A stretch of 31,048 nucleotides of DNA from the UHGV virus genome UHGV-0096129; one strand, written 5' to 3'. Numbering within the stretch: the first letter of the stretch is position 1; each line of letters starts with the position of its first letter. The notes under the pieces were generated by a model. That model was not told the DNA's origin. It did no database searches and saw only the letters and a list, made by a program, of their open reading frames with translations. Shown here one piece after another: positions 4,561-25,886 of the stretch. A program made the translations under genes and the position numbers. This DNA comes from a virus.

Positions 4561-4789
4561 AGAACGCCGCCAGTCGTGAAACTTGTTTTCAGGGCTGGCG
4601 GGGTTGAACAACGAGCGAAGCGAGGCGTTAGTTGACAGTAATATTTTTACTGCGTTGGTGCTGTTTTTTGACGGTTGAAAGGAGTTAGCTCGGAGAGCTA
4701 AAGCTAACAACTTACAAATATTCAAAAGTAAGCTTCCTGTTGCTAACATAAGGTCGATTTTTTATGTGGATGATGCAAAAAGGATAGCT

Positions 4790-5521
4790 ATGGATACTGT
4801 AATCGCTTTTCTATCACTCGCTTTTTTCGTTGCTTTTTTCATCGGATTAATCAAACCATCACTGGTGCGGATGCCAAACCGTAAAAGTGCAAGTGCGGTT
4901 TATCTCGGAGGAGGTTTTGTATTGAGCATAATTGGTTCAATACTCTATCCAACAGAAAAAAGCCAGCCAGTTGCTAAAACTGAAACATCAACCGTTGCAG
5001 AACACCAAGTCCAAAAAAAATTCGAATATGGTGGAAAAACACTCAAGGAATATCGGAACGAGCCAAAGAAAACTCGACACGATATTGTGAATAGTTACAT
5101 TGATTTTAAGGAAGTGCCAGTCACCGCATCAGATGCATTTTATGCCTGCATGAGTGAATATACTTTTACCAAAGATGATGAGTTGAAACTCGGTGATGTT
5201 CTTGGATGGTGCTTTAATGATTATGAAAAAGATCCGAAATCACTAAACAATAAAATCAACCTTGATACATTTCAGAGTAATTTTAGCGGTTGGGATGGTT
5301 CTTATCGACCATTGGAAAAGCTAATTAAAGAGAATATGAACGATGATTCATCTTATAAACATGTGTCAACAGTGTATCATTTGGTTTTGAATAAAGATCC
5401 GCACGCCATTGTGAAAACAACATTTCGCGGAACTAATGCTTATGGCGGAGTGGTGAAACAGACCGTTGCGGCGCGCGTCAATGTTCGAACTGGTGAGGTA
5501 ACTTCAATAATTGATAACTAA
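4790..5521 (+). CDS. Two-TM membrane protein with a ~190-aa predicted periplasmic C-terminal domain; function unknown
   Basis: ORF 4766-5521. I prefer the ATG at 4790 (AGGA at 4781-4784, 5-nt spacer), giving 243 aa. There are two hydrophobic helices (VIAFLSLAFFVAFFIGLI and AVYLGGGFVLSIIGSILY). They are separated by a basic loop (KPSLVRMPNRKSAS), which under the positive-inside rule places the C-terminal domain outside the cytoplasm. Confidence 0.7.
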   Translation: MDTVIAFLSLAFFVAFFIGLIKPSLVRMPNRKSASAVYLGGGFVLSIIGSILYPTEKSQPVAKTETSTVAEHQVQKKFEYGGKTLKEYRNEPKKTRHDIVNSYIDFKEVPVTASDAFYACMSEYTFTKDDELKLGDVLGWCFNDYEKDPKSLNNKINLDTFQSNFSGWDGSYRPLEKLIKENMNDDSSYKHVSTVYHLVLNKDPHAIVKTTFRGTNAYGGVVKQTVAARVNVRTGEVTSIIDN

Positions 5522-5545
5522 AGTGAAGGGCTAGGCCATGTTATG

Positions 5546-5574
5546 TTTAAGCCATAATATGGCTTTTTTATGAT
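5546..5574 (+). promoter_or_regulatory. Candidate sigma70 promoter for the 198-aa gene
   Basis: TTTAAG (5546-5551), a 17-nt spacer, then TATGAT (5569-5574), about 30 nt upstream of the ATG at 5604. AT-rich context makes chance matches likely. Confidence 0.25.
5550..5569 (+). terminator. Weak rho-independent terminator candidate after the membrane-protein gene
   Basis: AGCCATAATATGGCT (5-7 bp stem) is followed directly by a T6 run ending at 5569, 29 nt after the stop codon. The stem is short and AT-rich. Confidence 0.35.
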
Positions 5575-5603
5575 TTGGGTAAATTGATAAGGAGTCGATT
5601 TAA

Positions 5604-6200
5604 ATGAATTCAAAAAAAAGGAATAAATACCTCAAGTTAATGTTTGAGTGTAGAAAAAGAATTGAAACGCTACATGATTTAGCATCCGGACATACAGGAG
5701 GACTTTATCTTCAAGTTTTAATAGAAATAGAAGCGTTACAACTCAGAAAGTTATTGGAGCTTATCGCATTTTCATCGTTAATTTCATATGAGGAATCCTA
5801 TAAGACTGTTGCGAAGAGTATTGATGGTGTATGGAAAGCCAAGCGTATTATAAGTGAGTTAGAAAAAATAAATCCAAATTTTTACCCGTTACCTGTATCA
5901 TCATTTACCAATGACGGGTGGAAGAAATTGAAAGGTGGATATTTAACAAAAAAACAATTTATTGCACTGTATGATGAATGTTCAACTCATATTCATGTTA
6001 GAAACCCATACAGGATAAGCGAAAACTCGCTGGCTTTTCATAGAAAAGTACCTTCATACTTAGAGAGAATTGAATGTTTATTATCTAAACATATTGTTTC
6101 ACTTGTAGATGATAGGGAGTTTCTTTTTGTAGAGGTACCTCATTTTGAAGATTCGGCTACCCCTCTAAGAATTAGATGTTTAATTAAAAATAGAGGGTAA
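5604..6200 (+). CDS. Hypothetical cytoplasmic protein, 198 aa, no recognised domain
   Basis: Strong RBS (AAGGAG at 5589-5594, 9-nt spacer). AT-rich codon usage like its neighbours. Predicted mostly helical, with no TM segment or signal peptide. Confidence 0.75.
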   Translation: MNSKKRNKYLKLMFECRKRIETLHDLASGHTGGLYLQVLIEIEALQLRKLLELIAFSSLISYEESYKTVAKSIDGVWKAKRIISELEKINPNFYPLPVSSFTNDGWKKLKGGYLTKKQFIALYDECSTHIHVRNPYRISENSLAFHRKVPSYLERIECLLSKHIVSLVDDREFLFVEVPHFEDSATPLRIRCLIKNRG

Positions 6201-6446
6201 ATTTTTATTATCCCTTAATGATAACTTACATTAGTTATGATAAAAGTTTGATAACGTCAGTAGTGCTGGAGCTGTCCTTCAGCACTGATGGAGTTGAACA
6301 ATGAGCACTTCTGGACGTTATATTAATACTGATATAGTTAGTGGTTTTATTCTAAATTATTAGCGTAGCGCCGAAACTCACTATTTACAATGGTGGGGTA
6401 ACGCTGAAAGAACCGGAGCGTAGATATCTTTTTTTACTGAAAAATT

Positions 6447-6468
6447 GTGGTCAATATTGCTTGACCAC
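6447..6468 (-). terminator. Candidate terminator hairpin downstream of the FRG gene
   Basis: Perfect 8-bp stem GTGGTCAA / TTGACCAC with a 6-nt loop. On the minus strand it is followed by AATTTT, 4 nt, then an A-run. It lies about 150 nt beyond the minus-strand stop at 6617. The U-tract is short. Confidence 0.3.
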
Positions 6469-6616
6469 TATACAGCGTCAGTTCAAACTACAATTAATAA
6501 AGTTAAGGTTCATAGCCTTTTTGAAGGGTACGTATCCAAGAGGCCTGTGCTCACTATGTGGTAAAGAGTCAAAATATCGTTATGTCTGATTCTTACGCAC
6601 AATTGTAATATTTCTT

Positions 6617-7972
6617 TTAAATGTCAGACATATATTTCTTTGCGATTTCAGAAGCTGTCTTTTCTATACTTGGATAAACAGTGCTCTCAGTAATGTTCAA
6701 TTGTGCAAGTTCTTTCAAGATTATTTTTTTATTAACTATGTCAACTCTGTCAAGAGGAAAGTCTTCTGTTGTCTCTGGGAGTACTGCCTCGTGACCAAAT
6801 AATAGAAATGCGCCAGACTGTGATTGAATGCGTTCATTATTTATTCTGGCGCGGATGAATAGTATTTTCCGAAGATCATGCAGGTCTATATTTTTTTTAA
6901 AATATGGTTTTTCAGCTTGAATATGATCTAAAAGTTTATTGAGTAGTTCTTTTGCGTGAGATTTGTCGTTTTCAATTAAGCTTTTTGATATAGTGCTTAA
7001 GATATTGTGTGGCATAAATGCCAGATTGGCTATACAGCTAACAGTATCAGAGTCAAAATATTTGATATTTTTTCTTTCTGTAGGAAACGAGATGACTTGT
7101 CCGGTGTCTTCAGGATCTTCACAGCATGCAAAATATAAAGCAATTAGCGGGTTGGATGTAATATCTAGCAATCTTGTAGGTAAACCATAATGCTGCATTC
7201 TAACTAATTTATCGATCGTAAAATTATCAGATATAAATTCATTAGGCCTTGCTGACAGAATTTCACGAACCATAGATGATTCTGAATCAAGGTGCTTATG
7301 AGTCCCGTTATCATGTTTCCGGAAAAGAGATGGGATAAGTTCATATTTATTTCGTGAATGTCCTCTATAAAAAATTTCAGAGTTTGAATTGTTGGATTTT
7401 TCTATAAAACTGATATATTCCTTTAAGCTCTTTATTTTTCTTATTTTTGATGTTCTTTTGATGTTTCCAATTTTGGAGGTGTTAGAGAGAATTTTTTCAG
7501 TTGTATCGTTTTTGGTTTTATTTAGCTCAAGTTTTAGCAGTGTTTCTCTTAATTTTTTATCTTTAACTGCCCAGTGGGTTCTGCTAAGACCATAAGCACC
7601 TAAGTCTAATATTTCTTTATATTGTTTTATTTCGGGGTTCTTGATTTCGCCAAAATCATGAACGATTTCAAAGTGATAACAAACATCATCATTGTCTATG
7701 TGTAAGTTGCCGACTTTTCCAAGTCTTACTCTTAAATATCTATTTTTGTCACCGTCTTTATCGTATATTTCAGTCATGAAAAGAACAGGTAGCTTAGATA
7801 GAGCGTCTAAAGTTATAGGGCTTACTGGTGTTAATTTTTTATAAAGTAAGGATGGTGTACCTTCTAGCATTCGGGAAAGAGAGAAACTATCTTCCCCATT
7901 TTTAATATTAGGATCCATAGATGGCCATCTATCAAACACAGAGGGCTCACCCCCGATAATGAGATTAAACAT
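6617..7972 (-). CDS. FRG-domain protein with an uncharacterised ~185-aa N-terminal domain
   Basis: 451 aa, with GGAG 7 nt upstream of the ATG. FRG-family signatures are present: FYRGHSRNKYELIPSLFR (res 201-218), MQHYGLPTRLLDITSNPLIALYFAC (res 259-283) and NERIQSQSGAFLLF (res 379-392). A Lys/Arg-rich linker (res ~165-185) precedes the domain. Confidence 0.85.
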   Translation of the reverse strand: MFNLIIGGEPSVFDRWPSMDPNIKNGEDSFSLSRMLEGTPSLLYKKLTPVSPITLDALSKLPVLFMTEIYDKDGDKNRYLRVRLGKVGNLHIDNDDVCYHFEIVHDFGEIKNPEIKQYKEILDLGAYGLSRTHWAVKDKKLRETLLKLELNKTKNDTTEKILSNTSKIGNIKRTSKIRKIKSLKEYISFIEKSNNSNSEIFYRGHSRNKYELIPSLFRKHDNGTHKHLDSESSMVREILSARPNEFISDNFTIDKLVRMQHYGLPTRLLDITSNPLIALYFACCEDPEDTGQVISFPTERKNIKYFDSDTVSCIANLAFMPHNILSTISKSLIENDKSHAKELLNKLLDHIQAEKPYFKKNIDLHDLRKILFIRARINNERIQSQSGAFLLFGHEAVLPETTEDFPLDRVDIVNKKIILKELAQLNITESTVYPSIEKTASEIAKKYMSDI

Positions 7973-16724: not shown

Positions 16725-17154
16725 TGCCGTCACGGTGCTGAAAACTAACCCCGATATGCTGCGGATATTCGTGGATAACGGGAGTATTGCCTCCACGCTG
16801 GCGGCGTCGTTGTCATTCGAAAAGCGTTACACGCTCAATGTCATTGTGACCGACTTTACCGGTGATTTTGACCTGCTCATCGTGCCGGTGCTGGCGTGGC
16901 TGCGGGTAAATCAGCCCGACATCATGACCACCGACGCAGGTCAGAAAAAGGGCTTCACGTTTTATGCAGACATCAACAATGACAGCAGCTTTGATATCAG
17001 TATCAGCCTGATGCTGACCGAGCGCACGCTGGTCAGTGAGGTTGAAGGTGCACTGCATGTGAAGAATATCCCGGAACCTTCGCCGCCGGAGCCAGTCACC
17101 CGCCCGATGGAGCTGTATATCAATGGCGAACTGGTGAGCAAGTGGGATGAATGA
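16687..17154 (+). CDS. R: Tail completion protein gpR
   Basis: 155 aa, the recalled P2 R length and position. Confidence 0.9.
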   Translation: MLKPDSLRRALTDAVTVLKTNPDMLRIFVDNGSIASTLAASLSFEKRYTLNVIVTDFTGDFDLLIVPVLAWLRVNQPDIMTTDAGQKKGFTFYADINNDSSFDISISLMLTERTLVSEVEGALHVKNIPEPSPPEPVTRPMELYINGELVSKWDE

Positions 17155-17599
17155 GTTTAAGCGTTTTGAAGACCGGCTGGCCGGACTGACTGAATCGCTG
17201 TCACCGTCTGGGCGTCGGCGACTGAGTGCCGAACTGGCGAAACGTCTGCGGCAGAGTCAGCAGCGTCGGGTGATGGCTCAGAAAGCCCCGGACGGCACAC
17301 CCTACGCGCCACGCCAGCAGCAGAGCGCCAGAAAAAAGACCGGTCGCGTTAAGCGAAAAATGTTTGCGAAACTTATCACCAGTCGTTTTTTGCATATCCG
17401 CGCCAGCCCGGAACAGGCATCAATGGAGTTTTACGGCGGGAAGTCACCGAAAATCGCCAGTGTGCATCAGTTCGGTCTGTCGGAAGAAAACCGGAAAGAC
17501 GGTAAGAAAATTGATTATCCGGCGCGCCCTCTGCTCGGCTTCACCGGTGAGGATGTGCAGATGATTGAAGAGATTATCCTGGCTCACCTTGAGCGTTAG
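17147..17599 (+). CDS. S: Tail completion protein gpS
   Basis: 150 aa, the recalled P2 S length and position. It overlaps R by 8 nt. Confidence 0.9.
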   Translation: MNEFKRFEDRLAGLTESLSPSGRRRLSAELAKRLRQSQQRRVMAQKAPDGTPYAPRQQQSARKKTGRVKRKMFAKLITSRFLHIRASPEQASMEFYGGKSPKIASVHQFGLSEENRKDGKKIDYPARPLLGFTGEDVQMIEEIILAHLER

Positions 17600-17665: not shown

Positions 17666-18307
17666 ATGAACACTCTCGCAAATATTCAGGAACTCGCGCG
17701 CGCACTGCGCAACATGATTCGCACCGGCCTTGTCGTCGAAACCGACCTTAACGCCGGTCGCTGCCGTGTGCAGACCGGCGGCATGTGCACCGACTGGCTT
17801 CAGTGGCTGACCCATCGCGCCGGACGTTCGCGCACATGGTGGGCACCTTCCGTGGGGGAGCAGGTGCTGATTCTGGCCGTGGGCGGTGAACTTGACACGG
17901 CGTTTGTTCTGCCGGGGATTTATTCCGGCGATAACCCGGCGCCGTCTGCGTCGGCGGATGCCCTGTACATCCGTTTCCCTGACGGGGCGGTGATTGAGTA
18001 TGAACCCGAAACCAGTGCGCTCACGGCAAGCGGAATTAAAACGGCCAGCGTGACGGCTTCTGATTCTGTTACCGCCACGGTGCCGGTGGTCATGGTGAAA
18101 GCGTCAACCCGCATCACCCTGGACACACCGGAGGTGGTCTGCACCAACAAGCTGACTACCGGCACGCTGGAAGTGCAGAAGGGCGGGAAGATGCACGGCA
18201 ACATCGAGCATACCGACGGGAAATTCACTTCTAACGGCGTTCAGGTGGATGACCACGGTCACGGTGGTGTTAAGTCAGGAGACAACTGGACACAGGGGAC
18301 AAAATGA
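17666..18307 (+). CDS. V: Baseplate central spike gpV
   Basis: 213 aa. The N-terminal ~190 aa read almost like the P2 V sequence I recall (MNTLANIQELARALRNMIRTG...). The extreme C-terminus differs. Confidence 0.9.
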   Translation: MNTLANIQELARALRNMIRTGLVVETDLNAGRCRVQTGGMCTDWLQWLTHRAGRSRTWWAPSVGEQVLILAVGGELDTAFVLPGIYSGDNPAPSASADALYIRFPDGAVIEYEPETSALTASGIKTASVTASDSVTATVPVVMVKASTRITLDTPEVVCTNKLTTGTLEVQKGGKMHGNIEHTDGKFTSNGVQVDDHGHGGVKSGDNWTQGTK

Positions 18308-22836: not shown

Positions 22837-23364
22837 ATGCAGCATTTAAAAAATATTACTGCGGGTAATCCAAAAACTGTTGCCCAATATCAACTGACAA
22901 AAAATTTTGATGTTATCTGGTTATGGTCCGAAGAGGGAAAAAACTGGTATGAGGAAGTAAGTAATTTTCAGGAAGACACGATAAAGATTGTTTACGATGA
23001 GAATAATATAATTGTCGGCATCACCAGAGATGCTTCAACGCTCAACCCTGAAGGTTTTAGCGTTGTCGAGGTTCCTGATATTACCGCCAACCGACGTGCT
23101 GATGACTCAGGTAAATGGATGTTTAAGGATGGTGCCGTGATTAAGCGGATTTATACGGCAGACGAACAGCAACAACAGGCAGAATCACAAAAGGCCGCGT
23201 TACTTTCCGAAGCGGAAAGCGTTATTCAGCCACTGGAGCGCGCTGTCAGGCTGAACATGGCAACAGATGAGGAGCGTAGCCGACTGGAAGCATGGGAACG
23301 CTACAGTGTTCTGGTCAGCCGTGTGGATCCTGCAAATCCTGAATGGCCGGAAATGCCGCAATAA
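22837..23364 (+). CDS. G: Tail fibre assembly chaperone gpG (Tfa family)
   Basis: 175 aa directly after H. The C-terminal motif ([30 protein letters not shown]) is typical of Tfa/gpG chaperones. Confidence 0.85.
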
Positions 23365-23515
23365 GTTGTATGAGCTGACATATCTATAGCACAGAGTAAA
23401 GCCTAATCTGACAGTCCGCTCTGTGCAAGGAGCGGACATTACCTAACACATTGGTAACCTTCACAGATTTACGCGTTCTACATAGTTAGCATTGTATCTG
23501 ATGAGTTATCATGTT

Positions 23516-24295
23516 TTAAAATATCCAACTGATAAATCCACCTGAATACTTTTCACTAATTTTGATTGCATAAAGATCATGAAGAGTTATAAATAAATCA
23601 TTATCTTCTTTGAAAATTAACTCCTCATATTCTGCCATTATCAAATTATGCTGTGTTGTTAGTTTAGATATGTTATCTATTTCACTGGCAAGCATGGATT
23701 TGTTTACATTGGTGTGTGGATCCATGGCAATATATTTCCGCATCAATGGAATTAGTTGATCAGGGTCTATATTTTTTGCATTTTCCTTTGCTTTTTTTTG
23801 TCTTTCTGAATAGATGGAGTTAATTGTGTCAGTGTGTTTTTTCGCCAGTCTCTTAAACTCTGGATATGAACCAGTAACTAATGCAAGCTCTTCGTACTTA
23901 AGGAATAAATCGATATTGCATTTTTTTACCGTCATTTCAAGATCTTCAACTCTTTTTTTTAACTCTTCATTTGTTTTAATAAGAGACATCGGGAGAACTT
24001 CATAATGTTGTCCTAATTCTGAATCAGGGCTCATTGCCATATGTACTATTTCATTATACATGAGCTGATAAGAAGCAGATAACTCTCCATACTTTAGAAA
24101 TAGTTCATTATGTGAAGATGAACAAGAACTTTGTAATTTCATCATTGGCCTAAAGTAATCCTTTATAAACTCCTCCTGAAGATCTTGGTCTTTTTTGTAG
24201 CTCTCTAGGATTCCAGCAAAAAGAAATGACCCTAAAGATATAGAGATTATGGATATTAGCAATTGACTAAGGAATGATTGTGTTTCATTACTCAT
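23516..24295 (-). CDS. Membrane-anchored helical protein, 259 aa, unknown function (cargo at the P2 Z/fun position)
   Basis: AGGA 8 nt upstream of the ATG. One N-terminal TM helix (FLSQLLISIISISLGSFLFAGIL), then a Lys/Glu-rich helical region. Very AT-rich (about 25% G+C in line 23581-23640 by hand count). It is antisense to the flanking late operons. Confidence 0.75.
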   Translation of the reverse strand: MSNETQSFLSQLLISIISISLGSFLFAGILESYKKDQDLQEEFIKDYFRPMMKLQSSCSSSHNELFLKYGELSASYQLMYNEIVHMAMSPDSELGQHYEVLPMSLIKTNEELKKRVEDLEMTVKKCNIDLFLKYEELALVTGSYPEFKRLAKKHTDTINSIYSERQKKAKENAKNIDPDQLIPLMRKYIAMDPHTNVNKSMLASEIDNISKLTTQHNLIMAEYEELIFKEDNDLFITLHDLYAIKISEKYSGGFISWIF

Positions 24296-24554
24296 AAAAC
24301 ATCCTTAAAAAATAACACGAAAAGTGACTCCTGACAGGGAAGAAACGACAGGTCGGAAACAAACTTAACTGATGAGTTAGCCGTAGTCCAGAACCTTGTT
24401 TGAACACTTAGTGTGACTGTTTGCATCTCAGGAATTTGTGCCAATAATATTTGAATCCTTATAATTTATTTAAATCAAATTTAGTTACTCGCTCAAAGCA
24501 GGCTGTCAGATTTGATAGCGTTTGGGCTATGTAAACTGTCAGTCGGAAAATGAG

Positions 24555-24572
24555 TGTGTACAAATCAGGACA
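24555..24572 (+). promoter_or_regulatory. Candidate Ogr-type activator site (TGT-N12-ACA) of late promoter PF
   Basis: TGTGTACAAATCAGGACA fits the TGT-N12-ACA dyad described for P2/P4 late promoters. Its centre is about 55 nt upstream of a point just past a weak -10-like TTTCAT (24608-24613), and the FI ATG is at 24696. A single dyad can occur by chance. Confidence 0.4.
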
Positions 24573-24695
24573 GGCGAGCTGATTGCCCGCCTTTTCTTTA
24601 TCTGTTGTTTCATCCACTGACCAGCCAGGTCAAATAGCGTCTCATGCACTGCCCAACAGAAAATAGTTGCACCCATTAACCACGGAGTTAAACGG

Positions 24696-25886
24696 ATGAG
24701 TGACTATCATCATGGCGTGCAGGTGCTGGAGATTAACGACGGCACCCGCGTCATTTCCACTGTATCCACGGCCATTGTCGGCATGGTCTGCACGGCCAGC
24801 GATGCGGATGCGGAAACCTTCCCCCTCAATAAACCGGTGCTGATTACCAATGTGCAGAGCGCAATTGCAAAGGCCGGTAAAAAAGGCACGCTGGCGGCAT
24901 CGTTGCAGGCCATCGCCGACCAGTCAAAACCGGTCACCGTTGTCGTGCGTGTGGAAGACGGCACCGGCGACGACGAGGAAACGAAACTCGCGCAGACCGT
25001 TTCCAATATCATCGGCACCACTGACGAAAACGGTCAGTACACCGGACTGAAAGCCCTGCTGGCGGCGGAGTCGGTAACCGGTGTTAAGCCGCGCATTCTC
25101 GGTGTGCCGGGACTGGACACCAAAGAGGTTGCCGTCGCACTGGCATCAGTCTGTCAGAAGCTGCGCGCTTTCGGGTATATCAGCGCATGGGGCTGTAAAA
25201 CCATTTCTGAGGTGAAAGCCTACCGCCAGAATTTCAGCCAGCGTGAACTGATGGTTATCTGGCCGGATTTCCTCGCATGGGATACGGTCACCAGTACCAC
25301 CGCCACCGCGTATGCCACCGCCCGTGCGCTGGGTCTGCGTGCAAAAATCGACCAGGAGCAGGGCTGGCATAAAACGCTGTCCAACGTCGGGGTAAACGGT
25401 GTTACCGGCATCAGTGCCTCTGTATTCTGGGATTTGCAGGAGTCCGGCACCGATGCTGACCTGTTGAACGAGTCAGGTGTCACAACGCTGATTCGCCGTG
25501 ACGGTTTCCGCTTCTGGGGTAACCGTACCTGCTCTGATGACCCGCTGTTCCTCTTTGAAAACTACACCCGCACCGCGCAGGTGCTGGCCGACACGATGGC
25601 TGAGGCGCACATGTGGGCGGTGGACAAGCCCATCACTGCAACGCTGATTCGCGACATCGTTGACGGCATCAATGCCAAATTCCGTGAGCTGAAAACAAAC
25701 GGCTATATCGTGGATGCGACCTGCTGGTTCAGCGAAGAATCCAACGATGCGGAAACCCTCAAGGCCGGAAAACTGTATATCGACTACGACTATACACCGG
25801 TGCCTCCTCTTGAAAACCTGACCCTGCGCCAGCGTATTACCGATAAATACCTGGCAAATCTGGTCACTTCGGTTAACAGCAATTAA
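24696..25886 (+). CDS. FI: Contractile tail sheath protein FI
   Basis: 396 aa, P2 FI length and position. Confidence 0.95.
   Translation: MSDYHHGVQVLEINDGTRVISTVSTAIVGMVCTASDADAETFPLNKPVLITNVQSAIAKAGKKGTLAASLQAIADQSKPVTVVVRVEDGTGDDEETKLAQTVSNIIGTTDENGQYTGLKALLAAESVTGVKPRILGVPGLDTKEVAVALASVCQKLRAFGYISAWGCKTISEVKAYRQNFSQRELMVIWPDFLAWDTVTSTTATAYATARALGLRAKIDQEQGWHKTLSNVGVNGVTGISASVFWDLQESGTDADLLNESGVTTLIRRDGFRFWGNRTCSDDPLFLFENYTRTAQVLADTMAEAHMWAVDKPITATLIRDIVDGINAKFRELKTNGYIVDATCWFSEESNDAETLKAGKLYIDYDYTPVPPLENLTLRQRITDKYLANLVTSVNSN

Follow-up and report, generated by a model that had tools for sequence, protein, structure and literature searches.

What does a P2-like prophage carry in the slot where P2 itself keeps fun(Z), how might this cargo have come to be there, and what might it do? 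We consider these questions for the virus genome UHGV-0096129, the whole stretch of which (31,048 nucleotides, nt) is referred to here as the window. The window is a P2-like (Peduovirus) prophage, with approximately 81% of its first 25 kb aligning to Yersinia phage L-413C at 96.9% identity, and its interval 23365-24695 holds a single gene for a protein of 259 amino acids, here called the cargo protein. Several observations made in this analysis are new: the gene belongs to a rare, solitary family that repeatedly adjoins defense genes and includes a branch fused to a caspase domain; it resides on a discrete 1.09-kb cassette that is also present outside prophages, in Enterobacter, Phytobacter and Superficieibacter; the fusion and a co-varying Cys pair suggest that the bundle of its product faces the periplasm; and the family is best conserved near the membrane and variable at the distal tip. 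It is best classed with the single genes of prophage hotspots and defense islands, as a stronger and more specific candidate for experiment than the sequence alone could establish.

A discrete cassette in the Z/fun slot

The cassette and its parts lie in the window as follows.

23414-24506, minus strand: transferable cassette, comprising a 3′ region with a hairpin, the open reading frame (ORF) and a leader of about 190 nt; common to non-prophage chromosomal loci
23414-23437, plus-strand fold: GC-rich 9-bp hairpin at the left junction (−17.3 kcal/mol, z = −3.6), without a following U-tract
23516-24295, minus strand: cargo gene (L-413Cp20 family), ATG start, 259 amino acids, a single-pass membrane protein with a predicted helical bundle
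24296-24487, minus strand: leader and putative promoter region, which travels with the gene
24302-24306, minus strand: Shine-Dalgarno sequence AAGGA, 6 nt before the ATG and invariant in 10 of 10 aligned upstream regions

The P2 backbone, as seen in P2, P2-EC67 and about 1000 E. coli prophages, can be followed up to 23441 and is picked up again from 24488; the roughly 1047 bp between these points are foreign DNA. In addition, blastn aligns the cassette to an Enterobacter ludwigii chromosome (locus L014; 87.9% over 1090 nt) and to chromosomes of Phytobacter (L022) and Superficieibacter (L023; both 85.5% over 1097 nt), and more diverged copies are found in Pantoea, Citrobacter amalonaticus and Pectobacterium. 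Because the limits of P2 homology are accompanied by this match to non-phage chromosomes, we conclude that the cargo is a discrete cassette. It consists of the leader, the ORF and roughly 100 nt of 3′ sequence with the GC-rich hairpin at its end; this hairpin is common to the P2 backbone and the chromosomal copies, and follows the gene at the loci of Enterobacter, Pantoea, Phytobacter and Superficieibacter. The cassette and the P2 backbone overlap by 28 nt on the left (23414-23441) and 19 nt on the right (24488-24506), and these overlaps are probably the crossover sites for the swapping of cargo at this hotspot. At both ends of the chromosomal copies there is a repeated TGAGCGAG-like motif, and the junction overlaps fit an idea of site-specific recombination reportedly put forward by Nilsson and colleagues in 2004. 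The cassette was probably gained horizontally, by recombination at short junction sequences within the Z/fun inverted repeats, whose arms appear among the following features of the slot's borders.

22837-23364, plus strand: gpG-like tail fiber assembly gene from the ORF list, last gene of the V/fiber operon and left border of the slot
23405-23429, no strand assigned: left inverted-repeat arm of 25 nt, 80% complementary to 24488-24512, on conserved P2 backbone
24488-24512, no strand assigned: right inverted-repeat arm, where conserved P2 backbone resumes
24573-24597, plus (late-operon) strand: terminator-like hairpin and T-run, separating the cargo from the pF region
24696-25886, plus strand: FI tail sheath gene, which opens the F operon and borders the slot on the right

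A preliminary description of this locus, made without database searches, had recognized an AT-rich insert of about 1.3 kb at the P2 Z/fun position, and both elements of that description hold. The 1331 bp of 23365-24695 are the complete intergenic interval between the gpG-like gene (the counterpart of which is annotated G in L-413C and “tail fiber assembly protein” in E. coli KE50) and FI; the foreign DNA is the part of it delimited above. This gap aligns with the P2 G/fun(Z)/FI interval, its flanks match P2, and the arms of its inverted repeat correspond to the left and right inverted repeats annotated in AJ512685, the P2-EC67 Z-region record, the left arm being conserved in both P2 and P2-EC67. 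The GC content is 0.32–0.35 over 23400-24400 versus 0.55–0.58 downstream, and the cargo has 32.5% GC versus 51.1% for the entire window. The Z/fun slot of P2-like phages is a hotspot already known. Should the fiber operon stop only at the terminator-like hairpin, late transcription could cross the cargo gene in antisense and silence it during lytic growth.

That the ORF is a real gene under purifying selection follows from its ratio of nonsynonymous to synonymous substitution rates (dN/dS), which is 0.07–0.31 in comparison with eight homologues. One might still regard it as a decaying or functionless passenger of a recombination hotspot, given that it is rare (found in 13 of 5426 complete E. 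coli genomes, whereas the flanks are found in 1020) and annotated nowhere. Such a passenger is highly improbable, for besides the dN/dS values the length of 259 amino acids is kept from E. coli to Vibrio, Teredinibacter and Thiodiazotropha, the Shine-Dalgarno sequence is invariant and the predicted fold is confident; selection and conservation effectively exclude a functionless ORF. The remaining ORFs of the gap encode only 40–79 amino acids, one of them lying within the cargo gene and one within its leader. The ORF list, together with the one transmembrane (TM) helix of the product, agrees with the earlier picture of a single gene, membrane-anchored and antisense to the late operons.

From this orientation, expression in the lysogen had also been proposed, and here the evidence has not followed. 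The standard sigma-70 scan of the gene's strand upstream of the ORF returned no promoter, and relaxed scans returned only sites with 7–8 of 12 matches; because nothing convincing emerged, lysogen expression remains an assumption. An invariant TGtTATnTT located 13 nt before the ATG was considered as a promoter and rejected, being too near the Shine-Dalgarno sequence. Enterobacterial copies retain the leader (about 190 nt) together with the gene; it is mostly deleted in Pantoea, and is absent in Vibrio and Teredinibacter except for the Shine-Dalgarno-proximal TGTTATnTTTTAAGGA. A search of this leader for a regulatory RNA gave no Rfam match, a structure z of +0.93, one compensatory pair and essentially no covariation.

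A rare family beside defense genes

The cargo protein corresponds to L-413Cp20 (NP_839869) of Yersinia phage L-413C, which occupies the same slot (99.5% identity in DNA, 99.6% in protein), and to WP_065275707 of E. coli KE50, with 100% identity in DNA. Hence, of the two possibilities raised initially, a fun(Z) allele or something new, the first is excluded and the second must be qualified, as the sequence was already present in databases under these names. Orthology to P2 Fun(Z) (NP_046777, 528 amino acids) and to P2 Orf30 (NP_046770, 261 amino acids) was rejected, with best BLASTP E values of 0.42, over 14 residues, and 0.095, respectively. L-413Cp20 is annotated “hypothetical protein / unknown”, and all members of its cluster are likewise named “hypothetical”; a single UniRef entry of the family bears the name “Lysogenic conversion protein”. 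Searches of Pfam and NCBIfam gave no family match for the cargo protein, and a literature search found no paper naming WP_065275707, NP_839869, L-413Cp20 or phrog_7729. The last of these, PHROG 7729, represents the same gene in the same slot and matches residues 79-259 (E = 1.7e-126), although its profile is truncated at the N-terminus and lacks the TM helix.

The family extends well beyond this slot. A word-indexed search recovered 45 clusters with 37–98% identity, mostly of 257–262 amino acids but including a few shorter fragments; their sources are Enterobacterales, Vibrio, Teredinibacter and Marinomonas. When 1.84 billion representatives were searched exhaustively with a profile, only 91 matched. 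Most of these are single-domain proteins of about 245–300 amino acids, the others being shorter fragments. Among named sources, the family also reaches Acinetobacter, Bordetella, Pseudomonas, Psychrobacter, Verrucomicrobium and a metagenome-assembled genome of Nitrospirota. One copy lies on a Burkholderia conjugative plasmid. The caspase fusion, P0120, is one diverged branch and was found on two independent metagenomic contigs. On both contigs (L035, 8001-9539; L036, 3593-5131) the fusion gene directly follows an hsdR-hsdS-AAA_13-hsdM cluster.

It is informative to examine the surroundings of these homologues. For 18 independent loci, with ORFs called by a simple greedy script, the family gene is solitary in every case (18/18), and no partner gene is consistently paired with it. 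The genome scan used the closer alignment, the broad one being without conserved stretches, and distant loci are therefore under-sampled. The neighbors include type I restriction–modification systems in Vibrio sagamiensis and at the caspase-fusion locus, AbiEi/AbiEii in Thiodiazotropha, the PADLOC candidate PDC-S06 (E = 0) in Phytobacter and PDC-S31 in Vibrio HI00D65, Mrr_cat in Enterobacter, a PLD/DrmC-like protein in Superficieibacter and, in Pectobacterium, an endonuclease domain akin to those of effectors of Shedu and of the cyclic-oligonucleotide-based antiphage signaling system (CBASS). Counted strictly, five of the 18 loci are defense-adjacent and, counted leniently, nine; the corresponding binomial P of about 3e-3 to 3e-7 is a rough value that assumes a 6% background. 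These loci are variable regions, and other copies adjoin an IS110 transposase, sit in an integrase island or flank loci for Rhs and the type VI secretion system (T6SS). The candidacy of the cargo gene as a defense gene, which had been proposed from its position, thereby gains support from the neighbors of its homologues and none from PADLOC, in which the cargo protein itself has no match.

The same neighborhoods also bear on a role in the envelope unrelated to phages. The protein could provide immunity against a toxin that acts in the periplasm or membrane, such as a T6SS/Rhs effector or a bacteriocin, or could be a lysogenic-conversion factor that responds to envelope stress or modifies the surface. 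Rhs/T6SS loci adjoin the gene in two species of Pectobacterium, where one copy follows an Rhs-Imm26-DUF4303 orphan array and the other sits in an integrase island just upstream of Hcp-VgrG-Rhs, and many immunity proteins share a periplasm-facing, membrane-anchored architecture. The UniRef name cited above and the several loci with housekeeping neighbors only would also fit. Nonetheless, we consider such a role improbable: no toxin gene is consistently paired with this solitary gene, the gene moves with its own leader as an independent cassette, and restriction–modification, Abi and nuclease neighbors are far commoner than toxins.

In the Pectobacterium integrase island (L019, 5367-7745; L025, 9367-11745), same-strand ORFs of 181 and 288 amino acids flank the family gene with gaps of 89 and 99 nt. 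Neither has a Pfam or PADLOC match, and the trio may be a lineage-specific three-gene unit. A DUF4440 protein encoded just downstream of the family gene in Vibrio sagamiensis (L008, 9127-9513) and in Enterobacter ludwigii (L014, 7041-7397) was considered as a partner; the two proteins are unrelated to each other, and their presence is probably coincidence.

Architecture and membrane topology

Three features of the coding sequence are needed here.

24206-24274, minus strand: codons of the TM helix (residues 8-30), with the motif G22-S-F-L-F-x-G28 followed by E31-x-Y33-K34
24122-24124, minus strand: codon of Cys58, at least 90% conserved in the broad alignment
23918-23920, minus strand: codon of Cys126, at least 90% conserved in the broad alignment

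Residues 8-30 are the sole hydrophobic segment of the cargo protein (Kyte-Doolittle peak 2.36). An AlphaFold2 model built with 26 homologues is all-helical (predicted local distance difference test score, pLDDT, 82.7; predicted TM-score, pTM, 0.72), with helices predicted at 8-88, 100-141, 144-172, 178-190 and 196-249, the first of which is the TM segment continuing into the bundle. Leaving the start Met aside, no residues but Cys58 and Cys126 reach 90% conservation across the family, and these two co-vary: both are present in 93 of 100 members, both absent in five, and one alone is present in two. The parts of the protein nearest the membrane are the best conserved. Conservation scores are at their highest, 0.49, 0.48, 0.52 and 0.47, in the TM helix, the juxtamembrane segment, the turn that joins helices 2 and 3 and the C-terminal tail, respectively, and fall to their lowest, 0.26–0.32, at the distal tip; the membrane-distal loops and helix ends are the most variable parts. 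The conserved motifs are GSFLFxG in the TM helix, E31-x-Y-K-x-D next to the membrane, YEELALxTGxY between helices 2 and 3, and a C-terminal EIS...GF tail.

None of the matches from structure comparison was significant, all being generic helical bundles, and a profile search of the PDB with a 66-sequence alignment returned nothing meaningful. Several candidates were rejected. A hint of a hemerythrin-like domain (E = 0.1) lacks the His/Glu/Asp di-iron ligand set; the pore-forming toxins ClyA and XaxAB (Foldseek E = 0.19–0.94, TM-score 0.22–0.25) were discarded, the cargo protein having no second hydrophobic segment; and membership in the 4HB_MCP periplasmic sensor domain, which would call for a Pfam match and a bundle between two TM helices, was not borne out. 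The ligand-binding domain of Tar (2d4u) and QseE (9m08), which are periplasmic four-helix-bundle sensor domains, are among the closest known systems.

On which side of the membrane does the bundle lie? We think that the N-terminus is probably inside and the C-terminus outside, which would place the bundle in the periplasm. One indication is the fusion protein P0120 (512 amino acids), in which a Peptidase_C14 domain of 219 residues (E = 2.4e-17) lies N-terminal to the TM helix with no signal peptide; because a signal peptide is missing, the caspase domain would be cytoplasmic, and the family domain would therefore lie outside the cytoplasm. Likewise, distant members have either Lys/Arg-rich N-terminal tails of up to 49 residues or N-termini that resemble signal peptides (MKKWQR..., MKKKTKA...). 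Furthermore, the co-variation of Cys58 and Cys126 suggests, and is consistent with, a periplasmic disulfide. The long charged helical region of the preliminary description is thus helical as described, and its placement is most likely periplasmic and not cytoplasmic.

Two points weigh against this topology. The close subfamily, which includes the protein of the window, has no Lys/Arg before the TM helix and three to four after it (ESYKKD), a charge bias that is ambiguous or opposite; and a Cys2-His metal site (C58-x3-H62 with C126) is an alternative to the disulfide. Taken together they would describe a membrane-tethered cytoplasmic bundle that binds metal through Cys58, His62 and Cys126 and has a cytoplasmic target. 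In support of that arrangement, the positive-inside count of the close subfamily favors a cytoplasmic C-terminus, C58 and H62 lie on one face of a helix, and H62 is invariant in the close subfamily. We nevertheless regard it as unlikely, in that the caspase fusion, the basic tails and the signal-peptide-like N-termini indicate the reverse, both Cys residues are conserved family-wide when H62 is not, and the ligand set of hemerythrins is absent.

Candidate functions and known systems

If the bundle is periplasmic, action at phage entry is favored over the sensing of intracellular infection. Indeed, with only about ten cytoplasmic residues and no enzymatic domain the protein could not sense events inside the cell, and therefore, if it is a defense protein, it would act at the envelope. 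We think it quite possible, if somewhat short of probable, that the cargo protein is an envelope-acting anti-phage protein, similar to those of superinfection exclusion, that operates at genome entry. This proposal draws on genomic context and protein architecture, and in making it we infer a topology, a disulfide, expression in the lysogen, an anti-phage phenotype and a stage of action. By analogy, it is supported by the slot and orientation shared with P2 fun(Z), a gene annotated for lysogenic conversion and the blocking of T5. The protein would be a bitopic inner-membrane protein with a cytoplasmic N-terminal tail of 7–11 residues and one conserved TM helix (GSFLFxG), after which some 230 residues would form a helical bundle standing on the membrane's periplasmic side. 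A disulfide between Cys58 and Cys126 probably staples this bundle, and from it an aromatic C-terminal tail (GFISWIF) would go back to the membrane surface. The variable distal tip could contact a component of the delivery apparatus of an incoming phage while the core formed by the conserved TM and juxtamembrane segments acts on the inner membrane, or on a partner within it, with the effect that DNA translocation would fail.

Several observations, in addition to the charge bias and the possible metal site discussed above, weigh against this proposal. The family is overwhelmingly chromosomal, whereas classical superinfection-exclusion (Sie) genes are phage-borne. Among 50,697 phage records it occurs only in L-413C (two records of one phage), and the seven IMG/VR contigs that carry the gene all have P2-like copies that are 99–100% identical. 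PADLOC-DB 2.0.0 yields no family for the cargo protein at E ≤ 1, and a PHROG scan yields no superinfection-exclusion family, its sole significant match being phrog_7729 (“function unknown”). Three to four of the homologous loci have housekeeping neighbors only, and neither the standard nor the relaxed sigma-70 scans gave the cargo gene a convincing promoter. Finally, a fusion to a protease effector would fit the logic of a sensor–effector pair, as in abortive infection, better than that of a passive block.

Abortive infection is the main rival. The periplasmic bundle would here sense an envelope event, such as the insertion of the tail tube or tape measure or a breach of peptidoglycan, upon which the TM helices would oligomerize and depolarize the inner membrane, and the cell would die or be arrested before any phage is released. 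The fused branch would respond through its cytoplasmic caspase-like protease instead. The Peptidase_C14 fusion sets a typical effector of conflict systems across the membrane from the family domain, and the fused clade carries a generic TM helix, which would agree with an effector role for the TM helix in proteins that lack the protease. The TM helix is otherwise unusually conserved, and its small-residue motif GSFLFxG would suit packing between helices. The defense-island setting is also typical for such genes, and the weak resemblance to the folds of ClyA and XaxA/B might be read in the same way. However, the sequence contains neither a buried hydrophobic hairpin nor a second hydrophobic segment, the fold matches are to generic bundles and none is significant, and no antitoxin or regulator lies alongside the gene. 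In addition, both the conserved TM motif and a protease are missing from P0134, the fusion's stand-alone relative. We consider abortive infection somewhat unlikely.

The closest parallel in position is P2 Fun(Z) (NP_046777), which likewise lies between G and FI as a single antisense gene on AT-rich foreign DNA with the same inverted repeats. At 528 amino acids and with no detectable sequence similarity, it belongs to a different protein family and is not an allele of the cargo gene. Blocking of T5 growth and sensitivity to fluorodeoxyuridine are the traits by which P2 Fun(Z) is recognized. In architecture, the comparison is with membrane or periplasmic superinfection-exclusion proteins, among them HK97 gp15, T4 Imm and Sp, P22 SieA, lactococcal Sie2009 and TP-J34 Ltp. 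As with the cargo protein, these are small products of single prophage-borne genes, anchored in the cytoplasmic membrane and free of any enzymatic domain. Their bulk lies outside the cytoplasm, as one would expect if a protein is to block genome entry; the cargo protein, whose TM helix is certain, may share this placement, although the charge bias of its close subfamily is ambiguous. They differ in that the PHROG scan shows no sequence relationship and in that the cargo family is mainly chromosomal, sits in defense islands and has one protease-fused branch.

The PDC-S single-gene candidates of PADLOC and the systems of P2/P4 hotspots are similar in being uncharacterized single genes of prophage hotspots or defense islands, although no PADLOC model matches the cargo protein. 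Known P2/P4 hotspot systems include those of Vassallo 2022 (PMC9519451), and Rousset 2022 (PMC9122126) concerns the old/tin hotspot and not Z/fun. Most genes of this uncharacterized type picked at random from P4, six of eight, gave protection (Moura de Sousa 2026, PMC13586616).

The other P2 slots of the window may be mentioned here. The old/tin position is also AT-rich (4800-7800, 31–37% GC) and contains an ORF at 6617-7972 on the minus strand for an FRG-domain protein of 451 amino acids (Pfam E = 9e-23) that matches the PADLOC candidate PDC-S15 (E = 6e-98), along with two plus-strand ORFs (4766-5521 and 5604-6200) that have no Pfam or PADLOC match. The third slot, at the orf30 position, is without cargo, as the S-like ORF (17147-17599) directly precedes the V-like ORF (17666-18307).

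Prophage hotspots have already been shown to yield new anti-phage systems, and the Z/fun slot is less explored than old/tin. The cargo found here has no homology to anything characterized, is small enough to be tested in a day, and is a good, if unproven, candidate for a new envelope-level phage-exclusion factor. The features of its family, namely the predicted periplasmic bundle, the coupled Cys pair, the TM motif, the variable tip and the caspase-fused branch, yield hypotheses that can be falsified. Its boundaries also provide a clean example of cargo exchange between phages and chromosomal islands through junctions of 19–28 nt. One can imagine, as an unlikely but specific version of these ideas, an outside-in phage sensor in which the disulfide-stapled periplasmic bundle detects the delivery apparatus and signals through the TM helix, either to the membrane by oligomerization and depolarization or to a fused caspase-like protease. 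If so, immunity would be triggered before phage DNA enters the cytoplasm, by a cassette of 1.1 kb moving between the hotspots of prophages and the defense islands of chromosomes. More generally, if the protein does act in the periplasm, it would join the very few known proteobacterial defenses that operate at or before genome entry, and it could help reveal how phages cross the inner membrane.

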